Origin: Candidatus Saccharimonadia bacterium
GTDB taxonomy: Bacteria > Patescibacteriota > SICC01
Reading direction: 5' to 3'
NCBI GenBank assembly: GCA_025449535.1
Contig: JANWJF010000001.1
Span: forward strand, 485,136-549,135
DNA: 64,000 bases
This document shows, piece after piece, positions 6,952-61,367 of this stretch. The position numbers and the translations under genes are program-made. Position 1 is the stretch's first letter. Each line of letters opens with the position of its first letter. The notes below the pieces were generated by a model. The model ran no database searches. It was not told the origin of the DNA and worked only from the letters and a program-made list of their open reading frames with translations.

Positions 6952-7545
6952 ATGGCCGATTACCAAGCGCAGCCGTACGACGAGAAGCTCGACAAGCTGA
7001 CGGGCATCTCGAAGGAGACCAACCGTGCTCACTACGGGCTTTACGAGAAGTACGTGGCGCAGTACAACCGCGCGACGAAGGATCTCAAAGAGGCGGACAA
7101 GTCCGATGCCAACCAGATCTACTCCTGGTACCGCAGCGCCGCGGTGGACCTGACCTTCGCGATCGGCGGCGTCAAGAACCACGAGATCTACTTCGGCCAC
7201 CTCGGCGGGGACGGCTCGCCCGTGGATGGAGGCTTCCAGAAGCAGGTCGCCAAGGACTTCGGCAGCTGGGACGACTACGTCGCCGACCTCAAGGCGGCCG
7301 GCATGGCGGCCCGCGGCTGGGCCTGGACGGCCTGGGACGACGACTTCGGCAAGCTCATGAACGTCGTCGGGGACGCTCAGAACACCTTCCCGGTCTGGAA
7401 CGCCCATCCGGTGGTGGCGCTGGACGTGTACGAACACGCCTACATGGCGGACTTCTCCACCGCCCGGCCGAAGTACATCGACGCGTTCCTCGCGAACCTG
7501 GACTGGTCGGTGGTCGAGGAATCGTTCAAGAAGATCCACGCCTGA
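6952..7545 (+). CDS. superoxide dismutase, Fe/Mn family
   Basis: Fe/Mn SOD fold motifs including DVYEHAYMADF (DxWEHAYY-like). Confidence 0.85.
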   Translation: MADYQAQPYDEKLDKLTGISKETNRAHYGLYEKYVAQYNRATKDLKEADKSDANQIYSWYRSAAVDLTFAIGGVKNHEIYFGHLGGDGSPVDGGFQKQVAKDFGSWDDYVADLKAAGMAARGWAWTAWDDDFGKLMNVVGDAQNTFPVWNAHPVVALDVYEHAYMADFSTARPKYIDAFLANLDWSVVEESFKKIHA

Positions 7546-7622: not shown

Positions 7623-8273
7623 ATGGCGCAAGACAAAGCCGTGAAACGCAGCGTGCTGCGGACACTCGGACTGACTATCATCACGTCCGGGTTGTACATG
7701 TTCTATTGGTTCTACGTGACCAAGAACCAGCTGAAGCAGGAACTGAAGACGGACGACAACGTCGGCCTGCAGACCGTGGGATTGATCGTCCCGATCCTGA
7801 ACGCGTTCATCGTCTACTGGCTGTACCGGGACATCAACAAGGCACGGGACTCGAAGAAGCTCGAGACCTTCCCGGCCGGCTGGTACGTGGGCGTCCCGTA
7901 CATCCTGATCGCGATCGCCTTCGCGATCGGATTCGGCTCGTTCTTCTCCTTCATCGGCAGCGTCGTTGGCAACGACACCGGCGGCGCCGTGGCTGCCACC
8001 GGCGGACTGGTCCTGGCGTTGCTGTTCGCCTTCGCGGGAGGCATTTCCCACTACGTCTTCTGGGGCTTGGCCGTCAGCAAGCTCAACCAGTATTGGGACA
8101 AGGTCGGCAGGACCACGGCCAAATTCTCCACCGGCGAGATCGTCATTGTGGTTCTTGGTCTCGTGCTCGGCTACTTCAACGCGACGATGGATCGTACGGC
8201 CAACACCACCGAGAGCGACCAACAGCTGGAACAGCTCCAGCAGGAACTCGACAAGTACGACACCAAGTACTGA
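7623..8273 (+). CDS. membrane protein (DUF4234-like N-terminus)
   Basis: Multiple TM helices; ORF track. Confidence 0.5.
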   Translation: MAQDKAVKRSVLRTLGLTIITSGLYMFYWFYVTKNQLKQELKTDDNVGLQTVGLIVPILNAFIVYWLYRDINKARDSKKLETFPAGWYVGVPYILIAIAFAIGFGSFFSFIGSVVGNDTGGAVAATGGLVLALLFAFAGGISHYVFWGLAVSKLNQYWDKVGRTTAKFSTGEIVIVVLGLVLGYFNATMDRTANTTESDQQLEQLQQELDKYDTKY

Positions 8274-52792: not shown

Positions 52793-53911
52793 CTAAGCTC
52801 CGTGCCGGATGTGCATGACGTCGCCGTCCTGGACGACGTAATCCTTGCCTTCCGTCCGCTGCTTGCCGGTGTCCCGCGCGGCTGATTCGGAACCGGCAGC
52901 CACGTAGTCGTCGTAGGCGATCACCTCGGCGCGGATGAACTGCTTCTCGAAGTCGCCGTGGATGGTCCCGGCGGCCTGCGGGGCGGACGAGCCGGCCCGA
53001 ATCGGCCAGGCGCGGGCTTCCTTCAGCCCGGCGGTGTAGAACGTGATCAGTTCGAGCAGCCCGTACCCGGCGCGGATGACCCGGTTGAGGTTCGGCTCCT
53101 CGAGCCCGACATCCTTTAGGAACTCCGCGCGCTCCTCCGGCGGCAGGGCGCCGATCTCGGCCTCGATCTTGGCGGATACGGCCACCACTGTCAGCCCGTT
53201 GTCCTCCGCCCAGCGCTCGGCTTCCTGATAGAAGCTGTTCGTGCCGGGCTTGGCCACGTCGCCCTCGTCGACGTTCGCGACCACCAGCATCGGCTTCCAA
53301 GTGATCAGCGGGAGCGCCCCGGATGAGTGTAGATGCACCAGCTTCTTCCGTTCGTCCGCGTTGAACTCGACCGACCGGGCCGGCTGCTCGCCATCCAGGG
53401 CTGTCGCGATCCGCTTGAGGAGTTCCAGCCGCTCGGCGGAATCCTTGTCACCCCGCGCCTCCTTCTCCAGCGGCCGGAGCAGCTTCTCTAGCGTCTGCTG
53501 GTCGGCGAGGATCAGCTCCAGCAGCACGGTCCGCAGGTCGTCGACTGGATTGAGCTTGCCGGCCACGTGGGTCACGTCCGCGTCCTCGAAGCAGCGGACG
53601 ACCAGCGCGATCGCCGTGGTCTCGCGGATGTGGCTGAGGAATTGGTTTCCGAGTCCTTCGCCCTTGTTCGCCCCGGCCACCAGCCCGGCGATGTCCACGA
53701 ACTTCACCGTGGCGGGGACGGTCTGCTCCGGCTTCACTAACTCCGTGAGCTTGGCCAGCCGTGGGTCCGGCACGTCGACGATTCCTTCGTTCGGTTCGAT
53801 CGTCGTGAACGGCCGGTTCGCCGCCTCGGCCTGCGCGCGTTCGAGCAGCGCGTTGAAGAGCGTGGACTTGCCCACGTTGGGGAGGCCGACGATGCCGATG
53901 GAGAGGGACAT
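52793..53911 (-). CDS. ychF: redox-regulated ATPase YchF (Obg-family GTPase)
   Basis: MSLSIGIVGLPNVGKSTLFNALL G1 motif; C-terminal TGS; listed ORF N-terminus trimmed. Confidence 0.9.
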   Translation of the reverse strand: MSLSIGIVGLPNVGKSTLFNALLERAQAEAANRPFTTIEPNEGIVDVPDPRLAKLTELVKPEQTVPATVKFVDIAGLVAGANKGEGLGNQFLSHIRETTAIALVVRCFEDADVTHVAGKLNPVDDLRTVLLELILADQQTLEKLLRPLEKEARGDKDSAERLELLKRIATALDGEQPARSVEFNADERKKLVHLHSSGALPLITWKPMLVVANVDEGDVAKPGTNSFYQEAERWAEDNGLTVVAVSAKIEAEIGALPPEERAEFLKDVGLEEPNLNRVIRAGYGLLELITFYTAGLKEARAWPIRAGSSAPQAAGTIHGDFEKQFIRAEVIAYDDYVAAGSESAARDTGKQRTEGKDYVVQDGDVMHIRHGA

Positions 53912-54017
53912 GAACCCAGAGTAGCACCAGGACCTTGGTTGTGGTAAAAAAGGTTGTTGGCGAGAACCCTCGCCATGCCCGGTGCGGCGGTACCGTACGC
54001 GAACCTTAGGAGTCGCC

Positions 54018-54233
54018 ATGGTCTTCGGGGCCATCATCACGCTGGAAGCCGTGCCGTGGCTCGTGTTCGCCGCGGTTGCGAGTATGACCCTTCGGAGTTG
54101 GTTCCTGGGTTGGCAAGCGTCCAAGGCCATCAATCGGAACCCCAACTGGTACATGCCGGCACTCGACCTGACGGTGGTCACGCTCTTCATGTTGCTGGTG
54201 GTCGTGGTGTTCGAGCAGTACCTCTACCCCTGA
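54018..54233 (+). CDS. small 2-TM membrane protein (71 aa)
   Basis: Preceded by AGGAGTCGCCATG; hydrophobic. Confidence 0.4.
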   Translation: MVFGAIITLEAVPWLVFAAVASMTLRSWFLGWQASKAINRNPNWYMPALDLTVVTLFMLLVVVVFEQYLYP

Positions 54234-54378
54234 CCAAGGAGACCGGATCGTCTTCGAAAGCGAGGTGGGGAAGAAGGGACCCAAGGCGACGGTCTGGGCC
54301 TATGCCGACTCGTACGACCGGCTGACCGGACGCGGGGCCTGGGCCTGACCCGAAGCGAAGTCCCATCAAGGAGTCGCC

Positions 54379-54558
54379 ATGTTCTCGGAAGAGATCGTCA
54401 TACCCTGGATTGCGTTCGCAGTGACTCTCGTCATCACCATCGGTGCGGTACGGGAGTCCAGACGACTCGGCAAGATCGGGAAAGACCTCGGCTGGTTGCT
54501 ACTCATCGTCGTCCTGGCAGCGTTCACGTTGGGCTATGCCCTGGTCGAGACGCTGTGA
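54379..54558 (+). CDS. small 2-TM membrane protein (59 aa), same RBS/start context as 54018
   Basis: Identical 13-nt AGGAGTCGCCATG context; not in ORF track (<60 aa). Confidence 0.35.
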   Translation: MFSEEIVIPWIAFAVTLVITIGAVRESRRLGKIGKDLGWLLLIVVLAAFTLGYALVETL

Positions 54559-54795
54559 GGTCCCATGTACAACATTCACTGAATCACCGATAGGTGCAGG
54601 CGCATCCGCGCTCCCACGCATCTGTCGGTTTTTCAGTTCGTTGAGAGGGTATACCCTTGTTTTTTTGTCTTAGTGGTGGTAAAAATAGTAGCCCATCGCC
54701 CCTTGAAAACCCGGCCAACCAACCCATCGCAATCTCGACCGAATCACCTTTGAAAGTCGGCTTATGCCGGAACTCGACATAGGAGCGTGAGAGGT

Positions 54796-55098
54796 GTGAG
54801 TACAGCAACAGAGACATTATCGAGTGGTACCCAAGAAGTCGTCACCACGAACCACCCCCTGCTGCGTTTTCGGAAGGAAGAATCCCGCCAAGACGGTGCC
54901 AAGGGGTGTCTGCTGATCGACGGATACGTCGAACCGGCGAAAGTCCTGGCCGAGGCCCGGAGACAGGGCGCCGTCAATTCGACCGGTAGTGGCGTCTACT
55001 ACATCGTGGAATTCACGACCGGTTTCAATCAGAAAGACGGTCCCGGAGGGCGCAACGCGGACTACGTCAAGCGGGCGCTCAAAAGGATGCAGGACTGA
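54796..55098 (+). CDS. hypothetical protein (about 100 aa; GTG start after AGGAG)
   Basis: ORF track; RBS spacing favours GTG 54796 over 54787. Confidence 0.4.
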   Translation: MSTATETLSSGTQEVVTTNHPLLRFRKEESRQDGAKGCLLIDGYVEPAKVLAEARRQGAVNSTGSGVYYIVEFTTGFNQKDGPGGRNADYVKRALKRMQD

Positions 55099-55237
55099 GT
55101 ACTCGGAATTGCGATGGAACATCGGGAGATGCATGGCACAGGCTTTGATTCGGTCGAATCGCCGTGCATCTCCCGCCCCATCCTCGGGTTGGTTAGTCGG
55201 GTTATAGTCGGCCTTTGGCCGTAAGGCACGCAATGCC

Positions 55238-56239
55238 ATGACTGAAGGAACTCCAGATCGTCGCTTCGAGCTTCCCCGGGAGGAACTGCAGTTCACAGTG
55301 GAACACAACCTTCGGGTGCTAGCGGCAATGGTTGTCCGGCAGGAGCTCGACGAGCTTGGCACGGACGCTGACGACGAGACCGCCGACCTGTCCAGCCGCG
55401 CACTGGAACACCCGAGCGTGATCGTCGATGACGTCATCGACTTCGACGCGACGGAAGCCCGCGTGCTGGCGGTCAGGTTCCCGGCCGATCCCTCGGACGG
55501 TGAGACCGTTCTCTTCGCGGAAGGATACCTGCTCACCGTCAACCGGGACGTGAAGCGAGTGACCAAGCAGAGCGGCCCGGTCCGGATCATGGCCAGCCTG
55601 GACGGGTCGACGGTGATGGTAGAAGGCCTGGACGCACTGAGTGACGACGAACTGCAGGCGGCGCTCGTCGCGACGCACAACGCGTTCCTCGGGACCAACC
55701 GACTGGACCGGGCGGTGCGCCTGGCCTTGCTCGAAGAGAACCTGGACTGGCTTGGTTCCGAGAACGTAGAGGCCGACCAGGGAATGACGGTCGTCCAAAG
55801 CGCCGTCCGGCTGATGGAAGCCGAGGAGCCGGGTTTCGACAACGACCTCAAATGCTGGTACGTGCGCAGCAAAGGTGAACTGGCGCATCTCTCGGAAATC
55901 TCGTTGCTCGACGACAAGCTGATGATCCACGTGGTCGACCGACGGCACGACAAGCACCTGTACTTGGTCTTCCAACGGGGCGAAGACGGTTCCTTCTTTC
56001 CCAGGCATGGCCCCGAACTGCTGGACCCCGGCTTGGTGGCCGACGCGCTGCTCTTGTTCACGCCCGGCAATTACGAACTGGTCAGCGAAGACTACTATCA
56101 GCGCCATAACGGCGCCCAGGCGGTAGAAGAAGTGCTGGGCGAGGAAGAAACCGATAGGTCGGAAAAGGCGCGCCGGGAACGGGAATCCCATGCACGTCAG
56201 CCGGGAACCCGGGACGAGATCGAGGATCAGTACAGGTAA
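55238..56239 (+). CDS. hypothetical acidic protein (333 aa)
   Basis: ORF track; followed by a clean terminator. Confidence 0.5.
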   Translation: MTEGTPDRRFELPREELQFTVEHNLRVLAAMVVRQELDELGTDADDETADLSSRALEHPSVIVDDVIDFDATEARVLAVRFPADPSDGETVLFAEGYLLTVNRDVKRVTKQSGPVRIMASLDGSTVMVEGLDALSDDELQAALVATHNAFLGTNRLDRAVRLALLEENLDWLGSENVEADQGMTVVQSAVRLMEAEEPGFDNDLKCWYVRSKGELAHLSEISLLDDKLMIHVVDRRHDKHLYLVFQRGEDGSFFPRHGPELLDPGLVADALLLFTPGNYELVSEDYYQRHNGAQAVEEVLGEEETDRSEKARRERESHARQPGTRDEIEDQYR

Positions 56240-56289
56240 GGTCGTTTGCTTGAATTAGCAGGCAATCAGTAGCAACCTACAAGTACTAA

Positions 56290-56312
56290 CACACCGCGCG
56301 AGCGGTGTTTTC
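56290..56312 (+). terminator. rho-independent terminator
   Basis: 7-bp stem acaccgc/gcggtgt, loop gcga, then TTTCT. Confidence 0.6.
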
Positions 56313-56315
56313 TAT

Positions 56316-56816
56316 ATGGATTTGATTGAAAACTTACTCAAGGACAAAATCTTCTGGATTAGTGCCGGGGGAACTTTGGTAGTTGTTGCAGTAGCTGGTG
56401 CTATCGCCATTGCATCGTCTAGTGATAGTACCGATTACGCTTCACTCGTGACCAAAACACCAAGCCCAACTGTTGAACCAACTCCTAAGCCCACGCCTTG
56501 CCTGATTAAAGGGAATATTAGCTTCAATACAGGAGAAAAAATATATCACCTGCCTGGTATGGAGTTTTATGACGAAACGGTCATTGAGTCCGAGAAAGGT
56601 GAAAAGTTATTCTGCACTGAACAACAAGCCGTTAAAGAAGGCTGGCGCAAGGCAAAACCTGCTCCACCTCCCCAAGTTCAACAAGGGTATTACGAGGAGG
56701 GATGTGAGGACTTTGAGACTTTTGAGCAAGCATACGATGCGGGATATGAGTGTAATGACTTACCGAGCGAAGACAATATTGAAGATGAAGAAGGCTACGA
56801 AAATTACGAATACTGA
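56316..56816 (+). CDS. AT-rich (about 42% GC) membrane-anchored secreted protein with a conserved small Cys-containing domain and acidic C-terminal tail
   Basis: N-terminal TM, Pro/Thr linker, CLIKGNISFNTGEKIYHLPGMEFYDET ... FCTEQQAVKEGWRKA domain. Confidence 0.55.
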   Translation: MDLIENLLKDKIFWISAGGTLVVVAVAGAIAIASSSDSTDYASLVTKTPSPTVEPTPKPTPCLIKGNISFNTGEKIYHLPGMEFYDETVIESEKGEKLFCTEQQAVKEGWRKAKPAPPPQVQQGYYEEGCEDFETFEQAYDAGYECNDLPSEDNIEDEEGYENYEY

Positions 56817-56824
56817 CCTTAGTA

Positions 56825-57790
56825 TTAACCTTTCCCGTGAAACTTCTTATGCACCTCCCGCAACTGCGGGTTGGTGACGTGGGTGTAGACCTGGGTGGTC
56901 GTGATCGAGGCGTGCCCGAGCATCTGCTGGACGGACCGGATGTCGGCGCCGTTCCGGAGCAGCCCGGTCGCGAAGCTGTGCCGCAGCGTGTGCGGCGTCA
57001 CGTCCTTCACCAGGCCGGCCGCCGCCGCGTACTTCTTGATGATCCGTTGGATCGACCGCGGCGTGAGCCGGAGGTCGGCGCCATCGGCTTCCTTGGCGGC
57101 ATTGGTTGAGTCGCTGCGGGTGAGCAACGGCTTCATCGCGATCTTCCGTTTCAGTAGATAGGCGCGCAGGTATTCACCGGCGCGGTCGGAGAGGAAGACC
57201 AGCCGTGGCTTGTCGCCTTTGCCGCGCACCATGAACTCGCCGCGTTCGGCGTTCACCTGGTCGGTGTCCAGCGCGCAGAGCTCCGAGACGCGAAGGCCGG
57301 TGGAGTAGAGCAGCTCGAGGATCGCGCGGTCGCGGAAGCTCGTGAACGTGTCCTTGGTGCCGGAGGATTCAAGCAAACGTTCCGTCTCCTCCGGCGTCAG
57401 GAACTCGACGCTGCGGCGCTCGGTCTTGCCGAGCTCGATCTTGTCCGCGGAGAGCGCCTTCACGTCCCGCTTGGCGAGGTACTTGAGCAGCGCGCGGATC
57501 GCGATCACGTGGTAGTTCTGGGTGAGCCGCCCGAGCTCGCCACCTTGCGGGGTCGGTTGGCGGTTCAGCCAGAGCCGGAAGCCCCGGACGGCGTCGATCG
57601 AGATGTTGGACGGCTTGCTGACGCCGTGCTTGGCGCCCCAGGCCGCGAACCGGCCGAGGTAGTGGTCGTAGTTCCGGAGGGTGAGCTTGGAAAGCTGCTT
57701 CTCCACCTCGCAGTACTCGAGGAACTGCGTGATCATCTCCGAGAGCTCGGTCTTCGGGCGGGCTGGTTTTGGTGTCGCTTTTTCCGGCAT
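56825..57790 (-). CDS. tyrosine site-specific recombinase (XerC/XerD-like)
   Basis: R...HxxR...Y catalytic pattern (HTLRHSFATGLL ... LGHASITTTQVYTHV). Confidence 0.85.
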   Translation of the reverse strand: MPEKATPKPARPKTELSEMITQFLEYCEVEKQLSKLTLRNYDHYLGRFAAWGAKHGVSKPSNISIDAVRGFRLWLNRQPTPQGGELGRLTQNYHVIAIRALLKYLAKRDVKALSADKIELGKTERRSVEFLTPEETERLLESSGTKDTFTSFRDRAILELLYSTGLRVSELCALDTDQVNAERGEFMVRGKGDKPRLVFLSDRAGEYLRAYLLKRKIAMKPLLTRSDSTNAAKEADGADLRLTPRSIQRIIKKYAAAAGLVKDVTPHTLRHSFATGLLRNGADIRSVQQMLGHASITTTQVYTHVTNPQLREVHKKFHGKG

Positions 57791-57817
57791 GCGCCTGCAT
57801 TTTGCGACATATGCGCT

Positions 57818-57933
57818 GTCTTGTCATTCTGAGCGCAGCGAAGAATCCTGCTGGGTTGCCAGATCCTTCGGTCGCGGAGCCTGTCCTGAGCGAACAAAGC
57901 GAGTCGAACGGGCTCCCTCAGGATGACAAGTAC
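57818..57933. repeat. inverted repeat pair (tcttgtcattctgag / cctcaggatgacaag) flanking about 85 bp immediately upstream of the recombinase start
   Basis: 14/15 complementary positions. Confidence 0.4.
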
Positions 57934-57945
57934 CACCTGGCCAGT

Positions 57946-58025
57946 CATCTGGGGTGGGGCGGGGTCTCCTAACGGGTCGCAATGACGGCGTTAGAAGACC
58001 CCGCGGGTCCACTCCAGATGATTCA
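57946..58025 (-). repeat. R1a: about 80-nt imperfect palindromic repeat beginning at the stop codon of gene 58023-58493
   Basis: Conserved flanks catctggggtggggcgg...gaccccgcgggtccactccagatgattca shared with R1b. Confidence 0.6.
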
Positions 58026-58493
58026 ACTTCCTGACTGTTCGTTTCGGGCATCATGCCGGAAGGAAGCGATCAGAGCACCGACCAGTCCGCCGAAGAGGCC
58101 GGTCAGGCCGAGGATGAGCGCACCGCCGCGGCGGAGCCAGGAGCATTCCTTGCGGCGGCCGGAGGTTCTCAGGATGGTTCCCGAGACCAGTCCGGCACCG
58201 AGGATCGCGCCTGCCGTGATGTAGTTCTCGCCGAGCTCGTGTTCCTCACGGACCGTCGACTCTTCGTACTGCTCTTCCTGCGTCGCGGCTTGCCGCTTGT
58301 CGTCGCGGACCACGTTGATCACCAGCCAGGCGTACGCCGCGGAGAGCGCGGTGGTGATGGCGCCGGGAATAAGCATCCAGCGATTGCGGCGGTGCAGGAT
58401 CATGGTGACCAGTCCGCCAGCCAGCCCGGCGCCGCCCGGCAATCCGATCAGCGTGCATTCCCACACGACGGTGTATTCTTTCTTCTTCGTCAC
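58023..58493 (-). CDS. glycine-zipper membrane protein (156 aa)
   Basis: GxxxG-rich TM helices (GGAGLAGGLV, GAILGAGLVSG, GLTGLFGGLVGALI). Confidence 0.5.
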   Translation of the reverse strand: MTKKKEYTVVWECTLIGLPGGAGLAGGLVTMILHRRNRWMLIPGAITTALSAAYAWLVINVVRDDKRQAATQEEQYEESTVREEHELGENYITAGAILGAGLVSGTILRTSGRRKECSWLRRGGALILGLTGLFGGLVGALIASFRHDARNEQSGS

Positions 58494-58520
58494 GTCGTCC
58501 TTCCGTAGGGGTTGGTCAGG

Positions 58521-58739
58521 TCACTGCGAGCCCTTGAGGCCGACCACGAAGGCCAGTCCCGCGCTGCCGAGGGCGGAGAGGGTAGTCAGGAAGATTCCCA
58601 ACCGGGTGCGTCCGCGGTCCTTGCTGCGCCGGCCCGAGACGGTCAGTCCCACGCCGGAGGCCAAGGTGCCGCCGAGCCCGAATCCCGCCAGCGAGAAGTC
58701 TCGCGCGGCGGCGAAGCTGCTGGTCTTGAATCCTTTCAT
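58521..58739 (-). CDS. small glycine-zipper membrane protein (72 aa)
   Basis: AGFGLGGTLASGVGL and LGSAGLAFVVGL helices. Confidence 0.45.
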   Translation of the reverse strand: MKGFKTSSFAAARDFSLAGFGLGGTLASGVGLTVSGRRSKDRGRTRLGIFLTTLSALGSAGLAFVVGLKGSQ

Positions 58740-58761
58740 CCAACGGTCCCTTCGGTCGTCT

Positions 58762-58800
58762 TTTCATCTCTGGAGTGGAGATGGTTGGCCAGGTTGTTAA
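58762..58800 (-). promoter_or_regulatory. R2a: conserved upstream element with 6-7-6 palindrome CATCTC-N7-GAGATG, centred 35 bp before the start codon of 58521-58739
   Basis: Near-identical 39-nt copy at 59782-59820. Confidence 0.45.
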
Positions 58801-58821
58801 CGTCCGTCCGACCCGGCTTAC

Positions 58822-58903
58822 CATCTGGGGTGGGGCGGAGTCTCATAACGTGTCTCAAGAAGAGAGCGTTACGAGACCCCGCGGGTCCACTCCAGATGAT
58901 TCA
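58822..58903 (-). repeat. R1b: second copy of the about 80-nt palindromic repeat, beginning at the stop codon of gene 58901-59164
   Basis: 29+31 nt flanks identical to R1a; central 22 nt diverged. Confidence 0.6.
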
Positions 58904-59164
58904 TCCTTCCAGTTGGGACGTGTGGCGGCGTAGGGCGCGTTTCGCCCAAAGGATTGCGGTGCCGACGGCCCAGGTCAGGATCAGGGACTGGCTGGTGAGC
59001 ATGATGCCTCCGCCGAACAGCCAGTTGTTGTGTCGACGGCCTTTGCGCATCAGCATGATGCCGGCCATGGTGCCGATGATGCCGAGGAGGCCCCAGGGGG
59101 TCATTTCGCGGCGGTAGGTGTTGTATTCCATGGGCGTGAAGCGTGGCGGCGAGTCGTCAGCCAC
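58901..59164 (-). CDS. small membrane protein (87 aa)
   Basis: Two TM helices; ORF track. Confidence 0.45.
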   Translation of the reverse strand: MADDSPPRFTPMEYNTYRREMTPWGLLGIIGTMAGIMLMRKGRRHNNWLFGGGIMLTSQSLILTWAVGTAILWAKRALRRHTSQLEG

Positions 59165-59206
59165 GGGACTCCTTCCTGTAGTCGTTCCCGGACGGCGAAG
59201 CCGTCC

Positions 59207-59410
59207 CTAGTCGAGGTAGGCCATGAACTCAGCGGTTTTCTCTTCCATGCGGAGTTCTTGGTCGATCGCGAAGCCCAGGCCCAAAAGCAGGGCGACCACG
59301 ATCAGTGAGGCACCTTTGAGGAAGCGCCAGCCTTCGAAGTGAAAGAGACCGGAAAGCATCATCACGAAGCCGGCTCCGCAGCCCGTAGCGGTGGCTGCCG
59401 CGGCTCCCAT
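59207..59410 (-). CDS. small membrane protein (67 aa)
   Basis: Trimmed from a 300-aa overprinted ORF to the hydrophobic C-terminal ATG-started segment. Confidence 0.35.
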   Translation of the reverse strand: MGAAAATATGCGAGFVMMLSGLFHFEGWRFLKGASLIVVALLLGLGFAIDQELRMEEKTAEFMAYLD

Positions 59411-59478
59411 CGCTTCGTACTCGGGCCGGAGGTCGATCTGTTGTCGTGCCACGGGGTTCCTTTCGTCGTTGTCAGCGG

Positions 59479-59760
59479 TCACCCGCCGGAAGTTTGATCT
59501 GCGGTCGTGCCGTTCGGGGAGGCGGAATGCTTTGATCCGATTGCGACTCCGCAGAGCAGTGCCAGGCCAGCGCCCAGGAAGTAGAGCCCGCAACCGATGG
59601 CGAAGAGCTTTCCCTCTTCGTCGCCGCTCGATGTCGACACGACCATCAATGCGGTTCCTGTCGCGAAGATCGCTCCGAGGAGAAAGCCGATGATCAGGCA
59701 AAGCTGTCCGGCGAAGGCCTGGTCCCGCTGGTACTCGTCCTTCGTGTAAGTGTCCTTCAT
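59479..59760 (-). CDS. small glycine-zipper membrane protein (93 aa)
   Basis: GxxxG-rich helices; GGAGG RBS. Confidence 0.45.
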   Translation of the reverse strand: MKDTYTKDEYQRDQAFAGQLCLIIGFLLGAIFATGTALMVVSTSSGDEEGKLFAIGCGLYFLGAGLALLCGVAIGSKHSASPNGTTADQTSGG

Positions 59761-59781
59761 GGCGTTCCTCCGTCAGGGTCG

Positions 59782-59820
59782 ATTTCATCTCTGGAGTGGA
59801 GATGGTAAGCCGGGTTGTTA
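59782..59820 (-). promoter_or_regulatory. R2b: second copy of the conserved upstream palindrome element, centred 34 bp before the start codon of 59479-59760
   Basis: See R2a. Confidence 0.45.
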
Positions 59821-59909
59821 AGAGACCATTTACCATAGCATAAAAGTCCGCTTCCAGGCTGGCAAAATGTGCGCTCAGGTGCATAGTAATAAGCAGACAA
59901 GCCGTTACC

Positions 59910-60599
59910 TTGAGCGCCATGAGAACCCCTGGCACAGAGTTCCGTCCCGACGAACCGGTCCTCCGGGAGGTCCGCCTGGGGATCGAAGGTACCGACCAAA
60001 ACGAAATCGTCTTCTGCGGGATGTCGGAAGGCCGGTACTGCCAGGTAGCGGCGGGGGCAGTGGACTTCCGGATCGAGCCCGCGGACGGCGATACGTACCG
60101 GCTGATCAACCTGCGTACGGGAGAGCTTCACGTGCTGGAATCCGGAAGCCGCCTAGCTCCGTTCCCTTCGCACGACTTTTCCGAGCCGTTCTTCTGGTTG
60201 GACAATGATGAAGGAACCCTCCGGATCGGGAACGCAGAAGAAGGAGAAGCGTCGGTCGTCCGGTTCCCGTACGATCTGCGATTCGAGCTTGTCCACGCGG
60301 GAGTCATCCGGTGTCCCCAGGATAGCGAGCTACGTTCGGAACTGGTCCATTCGTTGTACGAGTACGAGGACCGCGACCTGGACGGGTATTCGGACCGCGA
60401 CTTCGCGTTGCAGCTGTACAAGGAACGGATCATGGACGCCCTGCTGGCGCGCGGGATGGTGACTGCTAGCCGGCTGTTCGATCAGCTCGAGGTAGCGGAA
60501 GCGGAGATCTTGACGATGACACCGGAAGAACGGCGCGAGGTATTCGATGAGGCGTTCCGGGAGATCCGAGGGACCTGCGCCCAGATGGCCGCATCGTAG
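59910..60599 (+). CDS. hypothetical protein (229 aa)
   Basis: ORF track; AT-rich upstream region. Confidence 0.5.
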   Translation: MSAMRTPGTEFRPDEPVLREVRLGIEGTDQNEIVFCGMSEGRYCQVAAGAVDFRIEPADGDTYRLINLRTGELHVLESGSRLAPFPSHDFSEPFFWLDNDEGTLRIGNAEEGEASVVRFPYDLRFELVHAGVIRCPQDSELRSELVHSLYEYEDRDLDGYSDRDFALQLYKERIMDALLARGMVTASRLFDQLEVAEAEILTMTPEERREVFDEAFREIRGTCAQMAAS

Positions 60600-60746
60600 G
60601 TCCTACGTTTTCGACACATAACAAAAATGCGGAGGGGACCGAAGCCACGGTGTGTGATGTGGCTTCGATCGCCTCCTCCCCGTCCGAAACGTCTTACGAC
60701 GCGGCCGCCCTGGATTGGGCACGGGGTTGCGGGTCTGGGTGTCTGA

Positions 60747-61241
60747 TCAGCTGACCGAGCTTGGTGCTGCTGGCTCGCGTCGCGTGTCAGTTGGTGACGG
60801 CGAGCTGGATTGGATGATCGCCTCCGGAGTGATGTTCTGGAGCTTGCGGTAGAGCCGGAAGCCGGTGGCCCAGTCGAGTGCGATGCAGGCGATGGCGAAC
60901 GGTGCCGCGAACGGCAGGAATTCCGCCTGGACGGGGTATATCGCCATGTCGAGGATTCCGATGGTCATCGAGGTCACGAGTCCAATCGCGATGGCCAGGA
61001 TGCGACGATGAGTGAATGCCGAGAGTGCTATGGCCAAGCCGACCGAGACGATGGTCGTGATCATCAGTACTTCCTGGATGGTTAGCGAGAGCACCATCGT
61101 GCTGAAGCCGCCTTCCCGGGCTTCCATGTCGTACGCGCTCATCAGGTCGCTCAGCAGGAACAGCTGGCTGAACGCCGCGATGGCGACGAGCAAGCCGATG
61201 ATCCAGCTGATCGGGTTGATGCGAAGCTCGAATGACTTCAA
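60747..61241 (-). CDS. integral membrane protein (164 aa; TTG start with AAGGAGGTG RBS)
   Basis: Hydrophobic; the 412-aa listed ORF is an antisense extension over the PAP2 gene. Confidence 0.5.
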   Translation of the reverse strand: MKSFELRINPISWIIGLLVAIAAFSQLFLLSDLMSAYDMEAREGGFSTMVLSLTIQEVLMITTIVSVGLAIALSAFTHRRILAIAIGLVTSMTIGILDMAIYPVQAEFLPFAAPFAIACIALDWATGFRLYRKLQNITPEAIIQSSSPSPTDTRREPAAPSSVS

Positions 61242-61367
61242 GCTCCCACCTCCTTTATGTCGAATGTCCGGACAGGAAAAAACTACCGGTTGCTGAAAAA
61301 GTACCACCATAGAGATACTTTTACAATAGTCGCGCGGCAAACCGGCAGGGGACGGTAAGCTAGGTGC

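Follow-up and report, generated by a model that had tools for sequence, protein, structure and literature searches.

Complementary 5′ and 3′ elements bracket small-gene units in Patescibacteria and may close their transcripts

The locus described here lies in a 64-kb stretch of DNA (the window) from the ~810-kb genome of a Candidatus Saccharimonadia bacterium. Beside an xer gene, five minus-strand open reading frames (ORFs) encode proteins of 93, 81, 87, 72, and 156 aa; all five have SD-like sequences and were called as genes in the deposited MAG. A preliminary description of this DNA counted five small membrane genes. The ORFs are indeed there, but the 72-aa ORF scored one hydrophobic segment and the four others two per unit. 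The genes are organized by two repeats, R1 and R2. A repeat search of the window confirmed R1 copies at 57946-58025 and 58822-58903, with identical outer parts and a diverged centre, and R2 copies at 58762-58800 and 59782-59820 that are 92% identical. The arm motif CATCTGGRGTGG occurs four times in the window, compared with 0.61 copies expected, and 0 of 100 shuffles reached four.

Several placements given in the preliminary description proved exact. R1 begins precisely at a stop codon, as the plus-strand 'tca' at its end is the TGA of the 156-aa ORF (58023-58493, minus strand) and of the 87-aa ORF (58901-59164, minus strand). The R2 palindrome CATCTC-N7-GAGATG is found in the window only at 58765-58783 and 59786-59804, with its centre 35 nt upstream of the ATG codons at 58739 and 59760. 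As proposed, the R2 core does resemble the R1 3′ arm in reverse complement, and the two repeats are related. Beyond that description, the R2 copy of each unit has an outer part (58779-58797 and 59800-59815) whose reverse complement is the 16-19 nt immediately outside the R1 copy of that unit (57932-57950 and 58811-58826). Read in this way, the R1 and R2 'families' are the two strands of one predicted long-range helix, forming the 5′ and 3′ halves of a bracket around each operon. The two bracketed units, B and A, stand in tandem 10 nt apart, and their parts (predicted helices P1 and P3 and hairpin P2) are as follows.

59837..59865, minus strand: unit B sigma-70-like promoter, TTGCCA-17-TATGCT, a 9/12 consensus match whose -10 element ends 15 nt upstream of TTAACA
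59816..59821, minus strand: unit B TTAACA, adjoining the 5′ end of the box, beyond the inverted repeat
59800..59815, minus strand: unit B P1 5′ strand, sense ACCCGGCTTACCATCT (outer R2b), 16/16 complementary to 58811-58826; predicted pairing probability ~1.0 in the 1030-nt unit RNA
59785..59799, minus strand: unit B P3 5′ strand, sense CCACTCCAGAGATGA (R2b core), predicted to pair with 58887-58899 as 13 bp plus a 2-nt bulge
59479..59760, minus strand: B1, 93 aa, two hydrophobic segments; a singleton 90%-identity cluster, present only in assemblies of this organism
59207..59452, minus strand: B2, 81 aa, two hydrophobic segments, GTG start (from ORF and hydrophobicity)
58901..59164, minus strand: B3, 87 aa, two hydrophobic segments; its TGA (58901-58903) stands 1 nt before the P3 3′ strand
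58887..58899, minus strand: unit B P3 3′ strand, sense TCATCTGGAGTGG (R1b 3′ arm), from complementarity and cofolding
58836..58881, minus strand: unit B P2 hairpin (R1b centre), 15-16 bp, GC-rich, with two imperfections, both G-U on the sense strand
58811..58826, minus strand: unit B P1 3′ strand, sense AGATGGTAAGCCGGGT, spanning the left flank of R1b and its first 5 nt
58795..58800, minus strand: unit A TTAACA, 10 nt past the end of unit B
58779..58794, minus strand: unit A P1 5′ strand, sense ACCTGGCCAACCATCT (outer R2a), outer 9 bp predicted paired with probability ~1.0
58764..58778, minus strand: unit A P3 5′ strand (R2a core), from complementarity and cofolding
58521..58739, minus strand: A1, 72 aa, glycine-rich, one clear hydrophobic segment at the threshold used; a singleton 90%-identity cluster
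58023..58493, minus strand: A2, 156 aa, two tandem copies of a two-segment unit (internal repeat), TGA at 58023-58025, without homologues
58009..58021, minus strand: unit A P3 3′ strand (R1a 3′ arm), from complementarity and cofolding
57960..58003, minus strand: unit A P2 hairpin (R1a centre), from the inverted repeat and folding
57935..57950, minus strand: unit A P1 3′ strand, sense AGATGACTGGCCAGGT, from the inverted repeat and cofolding

A third unit of like design, C, which the preliminary description did not include, lies at 54703-55203 on the plus strand.

54703-54708, plus strand: TTGAAA, from the sequence
54708-54725, plus strand: P1 5′ strand, AACCCGGCCAACCAACCC, from complementarity and folding
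54726-54733, plus strand: P3 5′ strand, ATCGCAAT, from complementarity and folding; the 5′ half of the bracket spans 54703..54733
54787..55098, plus strand: cargo, a 103-aa soluble ORF without homologues (from ORF, homology search, and hydrophobicity)
55108-55115, plus strand: P3 3′ strand, ATTGCGAT, from complementarity and folding; the 3′ half of the bracket spans 55108..55203
55124-55174, plus strand: P2 hairpin, from folding
55186-55203, plus strand: P1 3′ strand, GGGTTGGTTAGTCGGGTT, from complementarity and folding

With two further examples in relatives, five bracketed units were found in three related Patescibacteria (CPR) genomes: A, B, and C in the window, one (L012) adjoining xer in a relative whose Xer is 90% identical, and one (D, in L115) between ftsH and murJ in a relative whose Xer is 70% identical. 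On the sense strand, the 5′ side of each unit runs from TTAACA (TTGAAA in unit C) into the box AACCYGGCYWACC and a unit-specific extension, which together form the P1 5′ strand, and passes directly into a unit-specific P3 5′ strand, followed by the SD and one to three ORFs. The 3′ side begins 2-24 nt past the last stop codon with the P3 complement, continues through one or more strong P2 hairpins, and ends with the P1 complement. The right-hand repeat is split by P2 in every unit, by ~45-50 nt in four of them and by ~190 nt in D.

The outer box is conserved across units; the inner part of P1 and P3 vary from unit to unit yet stay complementary. For P3, the pairs are CCACTCCAG(AG)ATGA with TCATCTGGAGTGG in units A and B, CCGCTTCAA with TTGGAGCGG in L012, ATCGCAAT with ATTGCGAT in C, and CATAGCCACT with AGTGGCTGTG in D. 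Units C and D have in common a 20-nt box subtype, GGCCAACCAACCCAT, despite their different loci, genomes, and cargo, and the outer boxes of L012 and unit A are nearly identical.

The cargo is mostly, although not uniformly, hydrophobic. Outside unit C, whose product is soluble rather than membrane-bound, the proteins are 63-156 aa long and six of the seven have at least two hydrophobic segments (A2 has four); A1 has one at the threshold used. A2 matched itself alone among 5.8 billion proteins, as did the 103-aa protein of unit C in a homology search; these two are the cargo proteins to which the statement of 'no homologues' applies. The A and B proteins, with their paired hydrophobic segments, resemble each other weakly (26-36% identity over 44-72 aa).

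Folding predictions support the bracket in all units. When the 5′ and 3′ UTRs were cofolded, P1, P3, and P2 formed in 5/5 units with a gain of -17 to -32 kcal/mol over the separate folds, and the predicted minimum-energy fold is a P1/P2/P3 three-way junction. In predictions for full unit RNAs (380-1030 nt), pairing between the box and the final 70 nt has a probability of ~1.0. We also aligned 23 pairs of P1 and P3 by hand from the five units, of which A and B are not independent, removing P2 and setting the register by complementarity; in this alignment, which leans towards structure, 95.7% of cells are paired versus 78.8% in shuffles (0/500 reach the observed value), and 12 of the 23 pairs change on both sides between units. 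Sliding the partners by 1-3 columns leaves just 23-46% paired. Between A and B, three P1 positions differ, and all three have changed on both arms. This compensatory pattern, like the flanking complementarity, goes beyond what had been described earlier.

Neither strand is preferred overall, as sense and antisense folds are equally stable. All three imperfections in the P2 stems of A and B are G-U on the sense strand; among the P1 mismatches on that strand, A-C outnumber G-U. Any inverted repeat in DNA would yield an identical folding result. Pairing alone, moreover, leaves the conservation of the outer box and TTAACA across cargos and loci unexplained. A search of Rfam 15 returned as its sole match a sub-threshold generic hairpin (a microRNA precursor model, 31 bits versus a gathering score of 97).

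The transcription context was examined with a sigma-70 consensus scan, which gave three sites in the region compared with 1.0 expected. One of these is the promoter-like site just upstream of unit B, and no comparable site occurs between units B and A. Promoter-like sites just upstream of C and D were read by eye, as was a weaker candidate for L012, and the spacing from promoter to TTAACA is about 10-17 nt. The predicted leader ahead of P1 is ~15 nt, so P1 is not a 5′-terminal protective stem. A canonical terminator (54645-54658) precedes the unit C promoter. None of the five units is followed by a terminator, and in 5/5 the next gene downstream points in the same direction. P1 cannot form in RNA if transcription ends right past P2. 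The consensus scan, a weak test for this purpose, found no promoter-like site on the plus strand within A and B and hence no antisense promoter; the interior of unit C has one weak 9/12 antisense match at 54845..54816. On spacing, the box was rejected as a -35 hexamer and TTAACA as a -10 element. The 3′ box of L012 may incidentally provide the downstream xer with TTGGCC as a -35 element.

These observations can be set against the original proposal that R1 is a REP/BIME-like 3′ stabilizer or unusual terminator, that R2 is a separate operator, and that together they define a co-regulated module. Hairpins that lack a U-tract can shield mRNAs from 3′ exonucleases, and R1 alone would indeed form the long imperfect hairpin that was proposed (~29 bp, -51 kcal/mol, z ~ -7.3) at a stop codon, with no T-run after it, also as stated. 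Likewise, the R2 palindrome is a perfect 6-N7-6 at a fixed 35 nt from two start codons. However, R1 is not a dispersed element: just two R1 and two R2 copies exist in the 64 kb analysed, all at one locus. The suggested search for repeats in relatives gave no further true R1 copy. Among 185,579 species genomes scanned with the R1 arms, the three matches were two contig-end palindrome artefacts and one unrelated hairpin, R1 and R2 are absent from viral contigs, and R1 is absent at the syntenic site in four close relatives. As an intrinsic (Rho-independent) terminator, R1 is ruled out, as its hairpin and those of all units have no T-run, and canonical terminators are present elsewhere (54645-54658, 56291-56308).

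The operator assignment for R2 is also unlikely. The palindrome would form a weak hairpin (-6.6 kcal/mol, z ~ -2), and it arises because one short motif serves in both P1 and P3. Units C, L012, and D lack it in the corresponding 5′ segments; these are unrelated in sequence yet complementary to their own 3′ UTRs. A transcription-factor site at equivalent promoter positions is not supported, the palindrome being restricted to A and B and lying downstream of the predicted unit B promoter, within the transcript. Box/anti-box pairing outside R1 and R2 is left unexplained by the original proposal, which we now consider improbable as a whole. What stands is that the repeats arrange small-membrane-protein genes into modules, for which a dedicated cis-acting nucleic-acid structure is the best reading; the REP/BIME and operator components do not.

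It also seems doubtful, and to a similar degree, that the brackets are a functionless by-product, with A and B as recent tandem duplicates that are still undiverged at their non-coding ends and with inverted repeats that are relics of creation or insertion. The weak similarity between A and B proteins would fit an old duplication, just five units are known, and the region is hypervariable. Yet the UTR elements of A and B are 92-100% identical and the coding DNA between them no longer aligns, so the ends evolve far more slowly than the genes. The compensatory double changes in P1 also argue against such relics, as does the recurrence of the same architecture in three other units whose P3 and P2 sequences are unrelated, in genomes with Xer identity as low as 70%.

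On balance, the evidence favours an RNA-level 5′/3′-UTR closing structure. We consider it moderately probable that each small-gene transcript unit is closed by a single long-range RNA structure, with R2 as its 5′-UTR half and R1 as its 3′-UTR half. Such a structure would form in the mRNA, and the closed message might control decay, processing, or translation. Possible modes include tac/fbi fold-back as in hok mRNA, 5′/3′ folding as in AapA1, or a UTR duplex as in Bacillus subtilis hbs. Alternatively, the bracket might act as a double-stranded stalk at which a read-through transcript is processed into separate B, A, and xer parts. Three copies of one 12-nt motif are present in units A and B, and the RNA could therefore choose between a local state (the long R1 hairpin plus the small R2 hairpin) and a long-range state that is predicted to be more stable. 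A ribosome halted at the TGA, 1-2 nt before P3, would need to melt P3. Conservation of TTAACA and the outer box suggests that a sequence-specific trans-acting factor is involved.

Another interpretation places the function in DNA, with the boxes and complementary segments as the ends of gene cassettes, either inverted repeats for inversion or a folded single-strand recombination/mobilization site. A recombinase such as the neighbouring Xer, or one encoded elsewhere, would then exchange the units as orphan-gene cassettes. Distribution gives this some appeal. Four relatives with 82-89% identical Xer have no unit at the PAP2-xer site, and the relative with 90% identity has one unit in the same place with different cargo and an outer box nearly that of A. 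The tandem arrangement of B and A, the box subtype common to C and D, the absence of homologues for the tested cargo, a MITE-like element adjoining units A and D, pairing without strand bias, and the resemblance of TTAACA plus outer box to a protein recognition sequence all point in the same direction.

Nevertheless, we regard this DNA-level reading as unlikely. No target-site duplication was seen at the units, and the right repeat, broken by 45-190 nt of hairpin(s), is unfit as a contiguous transposase site. Unit-specific covariation is unexpected if one enzyme reads all ends. At the empty site in the window, ftsH and murJ are 32 nt apart, and L115 has ~820 extra nt there; the indel ends lie ~225 nt and 115 nt outside the boxes, with a promoter and other repeats outside them on one side and the MITE-like element on the other. 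The boxes sit inside the transcription unit, not at the edges of the inserted DNA. The Xer next to A and B is a housekeeping Xer, syntenic in relatives without units and best matched by XerD and XerC models, and against the integron integrase model TIGR02249 it scored 135.5 bits (cut-off 265). Units C and D have no recombinase nearby. Six independent assemblies of the A/B locus show one orientation and identical sequence, and viral contigs gave chance matches only for the box.

Specific mobile elements were also considered. An integron is ruled out by the integrase model score and the lack of attC boxes; RYYYAAC was not found after the stop codons, and the unit start (G)TTAACA is unlike GTTRRRY when compared by eye. 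For dif/IMEX elements beside xer, no 11-6-11 dif-like core occurs in R2 or the box, and cumulative GC skew makes no turn near xer. A TIR transposon, MITE, or mobile insertion cassette is a poor fit, given the split right repeat, the lack of a target-site duplication, and the indel ends outside the boxes. Wider searches added little. A metagenome scan with TTAACAACCYGGCYWACC gave at least 120 loci, nearly all chance or a coding motif (QFNNPANP), and among the matches listed only L115 was genuine. A generic search for long inverted repeats in the window and the relatives' loci found no further units, amid a high background in GC-rich DNA.

Among known systems, the predicted bracket appears closest to the fold-back mRNAs that encode small membrane toxins. 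Pairing between 5′ and 3′ regions controls such mRNAs, as in the tac/fbi pairing of hok (PMC9841398) and in AapA1 (PMC5416894), and in both cases the closed form blocks translation until the 3′ end is trimmed (PMC9841398, PMC5416894). As in hok/Sok and AapA1, the units mostly encode small hydrophobic membrane proteins, the start and end of the message are complementary and would close it (a prediction in 5/5 units), alternative exclusive pairings appear possible through the A/B motif, and a stable 3′ hairpin stands beside the closing helix. In contrast to those systems, the cargo is larger (63-156 aa), mostly with two hydrophobic segments, and soluble in unit C; no antisense RNA promoter was detected and no SD-sequestering box identified; P1 starts ~15 nt inside the predicted transcript; and there is no sequence or Rfam similarity. 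Units also carry one to three genes, with two or three in A and B, unlike classical type I toxins.

A 14-bp 5′/3′-UTR duplex in B. subtilis hbs modulates RNase Y cleavage and couples stability to translation (PMC5737220). The brackets likewise would place a long-range UTR-UTR duplex on small-protein mRNAs, but their helix is longer (~23-31 bp), has two coaxial parts, and is broken by a hairpin branch, and they recur around unrelated genes as a family that shares a conserved box. In RNase III stalks, inverted repeats flank 16S and 23S rRNA or phage early-mRNA sites, and the flanks pair and loop the unit out of a longer transcript. By analogy, the unit-specific flank pairing described here could allow B, A, and xer to be cut apart, although protein-coding units are bracketed in this case.

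Elements of the REP/BIME, ERIC, and Correia types are similarly transcribed imperfect palindromes, located in 3′ UTRs or between cistrons and able to affect mRNA stability; each is short and self-contained, with tens to hundreds of copies, whereas R1 and R2 occur at one locus with a pairing partner 0.4-1 kb away across genes. Integron cassettes (attC) and Acinetobacter pdif modules resemble the units as small, often orphan, promoter-poor tandem units beside a tyrosine recombinase gene. Further points of likeness are a unit start complementary to its own 3′ structured site and a conserved outer box alongside an inner paired part and a hairpin that both vary. The differences are a housekeeping Xer in place of IntI, the lack of R''/R' boxes (RYYYAAC/GTTRRRY), and a complementary 5′ part of 23-31 nt rather than 6 nt. 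In addition, the bracketed units have their own promoters, their conserved part would occupy the apex of a folded circle instead of its base, and no dif-like 11-6-11 core was seen.

More speculatively, the bracket might be the recognition structure of an undescribed Patescibacteria system, in which the conserved TTAACA and the AACCYGGCCAACC box join with a paired extension and a hairpin, both variable, to form a three-way junction. This structure would be either a new gene-cassette site folded from the unit ends, which exchanges orphan-gene modules between loci and genomes, or a dedicated RNA-processing/closure signal that is read by a specific factor and marks accessory small-protein mRNAs. 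We offer this idea as a tentative one that we do not expect to prevail.

The locus also illustrates that what look like 'repeat families' at the ends of genes can be opposite strands of a single long-range helix. Patescibacteria are uncultured and have tiny genomes, and their post-transcriptional control and handling of many orphan small membrane proteins are almost uncharted. A recurring, covarying 5′/3′ bracket provides a concrete cis-element that is open to search, probing, and mutation. If it works like hok or AapA1, the logic of fold-back control would extend to a distant phylum and to multi-gene units. If the units are instead exchangeable cassettes, they would give these reduced genomes a new means of varying the membrane proteome.

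Both palindromic repeats of the preliminary description, R1 at stop codons and R2 upstream of start codons, are confirmed as observations. A repeat search recovers R1 at 57946-58025 and 58822-58903, with identical outer parts and diverged centres, and the arm motif CATCTGGRGTGG has four copies in the window, all in the two R1 elements, where 0.61 are expected and none of 100 shuffles reaches four. Each R1 begins, as had been noted, at a TGA stop, and the two genes concerned are as follows.

58023-58493, minus strand: 156-aa ORF whose TGA stop is the plus-strand 'tca' end of one R1
58901-59164, minus strand: 87-aa ORF whose TGA stop is the plus-strand 'tca' end of the other R1

R1 by itself folds into the long imperfect hairpin that had been proposed (-51 kcal/mol, z about -7.3 for both strands). 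The absence of a U-tract also holds, and an intrinsic terminator identity fails on this defining feature, there being no T-run after R1; canonical terminators (hairpin plus T-run) are present elsewhere in the genome, at 54645-54658 and 56291-56308. The R2 copies (58762-58800 and 59782-59820) are 92% identical, and in the window the palindrome CATCTC-N7-GAGATG is restricted to them, with its centre 35 nt 5' of two ATGs. The five minus-strand small genes have SD-like sequences and are called in the deposited assembly, the Patescibacteria (CPR) MAG GCA_036560925.1; Logan and JGI contigs of identical sequence extend to 810 kb. Their description as membrane-protein genes stands for the most part: among the 93-, 81-, 87-, 72- and 156-aa ORFs, most have two hydrophobic segments per unit and the internally duplicated 156-aa protein has four, and at the hydrophobicity threshold applied the 72-aa protein has a single clear one.

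The interpretation placed on these repeats is partly supported overall, and the REP/BIME label is not borne out. No further R1 or R2 copies occur in the 64-kb window, and neither repeat was found in viral contigs. A scan for the two R1 arms in one genome per species (185,579 species) gave three matches, none genuine: two contig-end palindrome artefacts and one unrelated hairpin. The artefacts (L005 3468-3552 and L007 7786-7872) are perfect palindromes at the extreme ends of short MAG contigs from Bacteroidia and Pirellulaceae, assembly products that resemble hairpin elements in pattern scans. In four relatives whose Xer is 82-89% identical, the PAP2-xer interval holds neither R1, R2 nor any of the five small genes, and a homologue of the neighbouring 226-aa gene is present there. 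Because R1 and R2 are not dispersed, the REP/BIME label fails its own defining test.

R1 and R2 instead appear to be two parts of one bracket around each group of small genes. Within each unit, 16-19 nt flanking R1 match the outer segment of R2 in reverse complement (repeat search): 57932-57950 pairs with 58779-58797 in unit A, and 58811-58826 with 59800-59815 (16/16) in unit B. Differences between the two units in this stretch occur on both arms (ACCTGGCCA... vs ACCCGGCTT...). The earlier remark on the R2 core, that it looks like the R1 3' arm in reverse complement, also holds and is built into the arrangement, and the two resemblances together therefore point to one common layout per unit. 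As read from the sequence, the sense strand would run from TTAACA through the 5' strand of an outer helix, P1 (the box), and the 5' strand of an inner helix, P3, to the SD and ORFs; after the stop would come the P3 3' strand, a hairpin (P2) and the P1 3' strand. R2 would thus correspond to TTAACA with the P1 and P3 5' strands, and R1 to the P3 3' strand, P2 and the first bases of the P1 3' strand.

The start of a unit can be written as TTRAMA-AACCYGRCYWAYC. A search with the box gave three units beyond A and B, or five in total. Among the matches listed in a metagenome scan with an 18-nt box, most are chance or coding sequence and one is a true unit (D, at locus L115); it shares one 574,219-bp contig with the 70%-identical Xer and thus belongs to the organism that carries this Xer.

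Unit A, minus strand: around ORFs of 72 and 156 aa; next gene xer
Unit B, minus strand: around ORFs of 93, 81 and 87 aa; next gene in unit A
Unit C, 54703-55203, plus strand: in the window, around a 103-aa soluble ORF; next gene a 333-aa ORF
Unit L012, single, directly 5' of xer in a relative whose Xer is 90% identical: around a protein of 77 aa, two hydrophobic segments; next gene xer
Unit D, L115, between ftsH and murJ: around a protein of 63 aa, two hydrophobic segments; next gene murJ

The L012 unit has nearly the same outer box as unit A but differs from it wholly in inner P1, P3, hairpin and cargo. In all five units P3 abuts P1 on the 5' side, its 3' partner begins 2-24 nt past the stop codon, and at least one hairpin lies between the P3 3' strand and the 3' box. 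The P3 sequences themselves, listed jointly for A and B, are unrelated from unit to unit.

P3, units A and B: 5' strand CCACTCCAG(AG)ATGA, 3' strand TCATCTGGAGTGG
P3, unit L012: 5' strand CCGCTTCAA, 3' strand TTGGAGCGG
P3, unit C: 5' strand ATCGCAAT, 3' strand ATTGCGAT
P3, unit D: 5' strand CATAGCCACT, 3' strand AGTGGCTGTG

Several individual features accompany these units. The unit C leader segment TCGACCGAATC (54735-54745) is an 11-nt perfect complement of the P2 loop GATTCGGTCGA (55147-55157), which would add a loop-to-leader contact besides P1 and P3. Between the 72-aa and 156-aa genes of unit A lies a box-like ACCTGACCAACC (58510-58521), one mismatch from the P1 box, that overlaps the stop codon of the 72-aa gene and may be due to chance. 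Around and within the unit D 3' UTR (L115 reverse complement 7160-7265 and 7700-7765) a different small hairpin repeat, CGAGAAGTT...GAACTTCTC, with TTCGAGGCCGCCGG-like sequence on its 5' side, is present in two or three copies.

When each 5' UTR is cofolded with its own 3' UTR, all five units have the P1/P2/P3 three-way junction as their minimum-energy structure, with a gain of 17-32 kcal/mol over separate folds; non-cognate pairs score lower except where the boxes are alike. In folds of whole units (380-1030 nt) the probability that the 5' box pairs with the 3'-terminal 70 nt is still close to 1.0. A hand-built alignment of 23 pairs (16 in P1 and 7 in P3, P2 removed), which covers only five units, two of them related (A and B), and whose 3' register was picked by complementarity, has 95.7% of its cells paired against 78.8% in shuffles (0/500 reach the observed value), and 12 of its pairs differ on both sides. 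Shifting the partner strands by 1-3 columns leaves only 23-46% paired. For units A and B the cofolds reach -84 and -90 kcal/mol, and the local R1 and R2 hairpins -51 and -6.6 kcal/mol, placing the long-range state 20-24 kcal/mol ahead of the local one. Since units A and B each contain three copies of CATCTGGRGTGG or its complement, the two states are mutually exclusive.

It seems reasonable to speculate on how such a structure might act. P3 could form once its 3' strand had been made, ahead of the competing R1 arm, and a ribosome that ends translation at the TGA, 1-2 nt 5' of P3, would melt it. Because no unit is followed by a terminator and the next gene always runs in the same direction, the closing helix could just as well be a site of double-strand processing that frees units from read-through transcripts. 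In its working, the bracket would be most like the small membrane toxin mRNAs that fold back 5' to 3': it resembles the tac/fbi fold-back of hok mRNA (PMC9841398) and the closed full-length mRNA of AapA1 (PMC5416894). A third parallel is hbs, where a 5'/3'-UTR duplex tunes cleavage by RNase Y and links stability with translation (PMC5737220). With type I toxin-antitoxin systems, however, the bracket shares a resemblance only: its cargo is larger and sometimes soluble, and no antisense promoter was found within units A or B. Unit C carries a weak promoter-like GTGACG-18-GATAAT antisense to the ORF start (54816-54845, minus strand), which, if real, would give an antisense RNA across its 5' region. 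Rfam returned no match for the bracket.

Just downstream of units A and B lies a recombinase gene.

56825-57790, minus strand: tyrosine recombinase gene xer, best models XerD and XerC

Its product scores far below the integron-integrase cut-off of the profile models, and an integron identity fails on this feature. The nearest Xer relatives keep the order ...BacA, small genes, PAP2, variable interval, xer, variable interval, ychF..., and this conserved synteny therefore marks the gene as the housekeeping Xer of the clade. Both intervals (ychF-xer, 53911-56825; xer-PAP2, 57813-61353) are hypervariable, with wholly different gene content among genomes that share 82-88% DNA identity in the flanking genes; the three units of the window, A, B and C, fall inside these intervals. 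Between unit A and xer is a MITE-like element of ~110 nt (57820-57930) with terminal inverted repeats CTTGTCATTCTGAG / CTCAGGATGACAAG; its end provides ATGACA, the -35-like element of the predicted xer promoter (57827..57799), and a shorter relative lies 21 nt past unit D (L115 reverse complement 7834-7886). Across the xer start codon, an inverted repeat, ATGTCGC-N24-GCGACA(T/C) (57780-57815), is conserved in all relatives (for example L010 and L011, both 7982-8020) and could be an Xer autoregulatory site or a leader hairpin. The adjoining 166-aa protein (56316-56816) has a 'sunset' domain (NCBIfam NF051437, E = 3e-8). Further away, a non-coding stretch 3' of the 226-aa gene (60677-60737) is 78% identical to L011 7794-7858, where the surrounding genes are not common to both; it adjoins an 18-nt hairpin, 89% complementary (inverted repeat 60631-60676), and may be a small RNA or regulatory element. 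Three independent Logan assemblies of the locus (L002, L003, L004) break at the same point, ~430 nt into xer, which points to variation among strains or to a repeat immediately after it.

Perhaps the bracket acts on DNA rather than RNA. As the main rival explanation we consider a cassette or inversion site at the DNA level, which we regard as unlikely but worth weighing because folds of the sense and antisense strands are equally stable (which counts against firmly calling it RNA), TTAACA and the outer box keep their sequence from one unrelated cargo or locus to another, units come and go among close relatives, all cargo tested lacks homologues, and a MITE-like element adjoins two units. Units C and D, in different loci and genomes, even have a 20-nt box subtype in common. 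Nonetheless, the 'right repeat' is split by a hairpin in every unit and no target duplication was seen, features on which a TIR-bounded transposon identity fails, and the unit-specific covariation is unlike selection by a shared transposase or recombinase. Furthermore, the window carries the empty site for unit D, with a ftsH-murJ gap of 32 nt vs ~820 extra nt in L115, and the ends of the extra DNA fall well outside the boxes. The boxes are therefore internal to the transcription unit rather than the ends of inserted DNA.

Candidate promoters also favor the RNA reading: TTGCCA-17-TATGCT just 5' of unit B and, by eye, a similar site upstream of unit C (itself preceded by a canonical terminator), TTTACA-17-TATCAT upstream of unit D and a weaker candidate with a TACGAT -10 upstream of the L012 unit. 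The box would thus lie ~10-20 nt inside the predicted transcript. P1 mismatches have no sense-strand G-U bias, a further point against a firm RNA reading; P2 mismatches of units A and B do. With moderate confidence, we favor an RNA-level structure that closes the 5' UTR onto the 3' UTR as the best explanation. The bracket itself marks a recurring family of small-gene units with a conserved box, seen so far in one Patescibacteria clade only.
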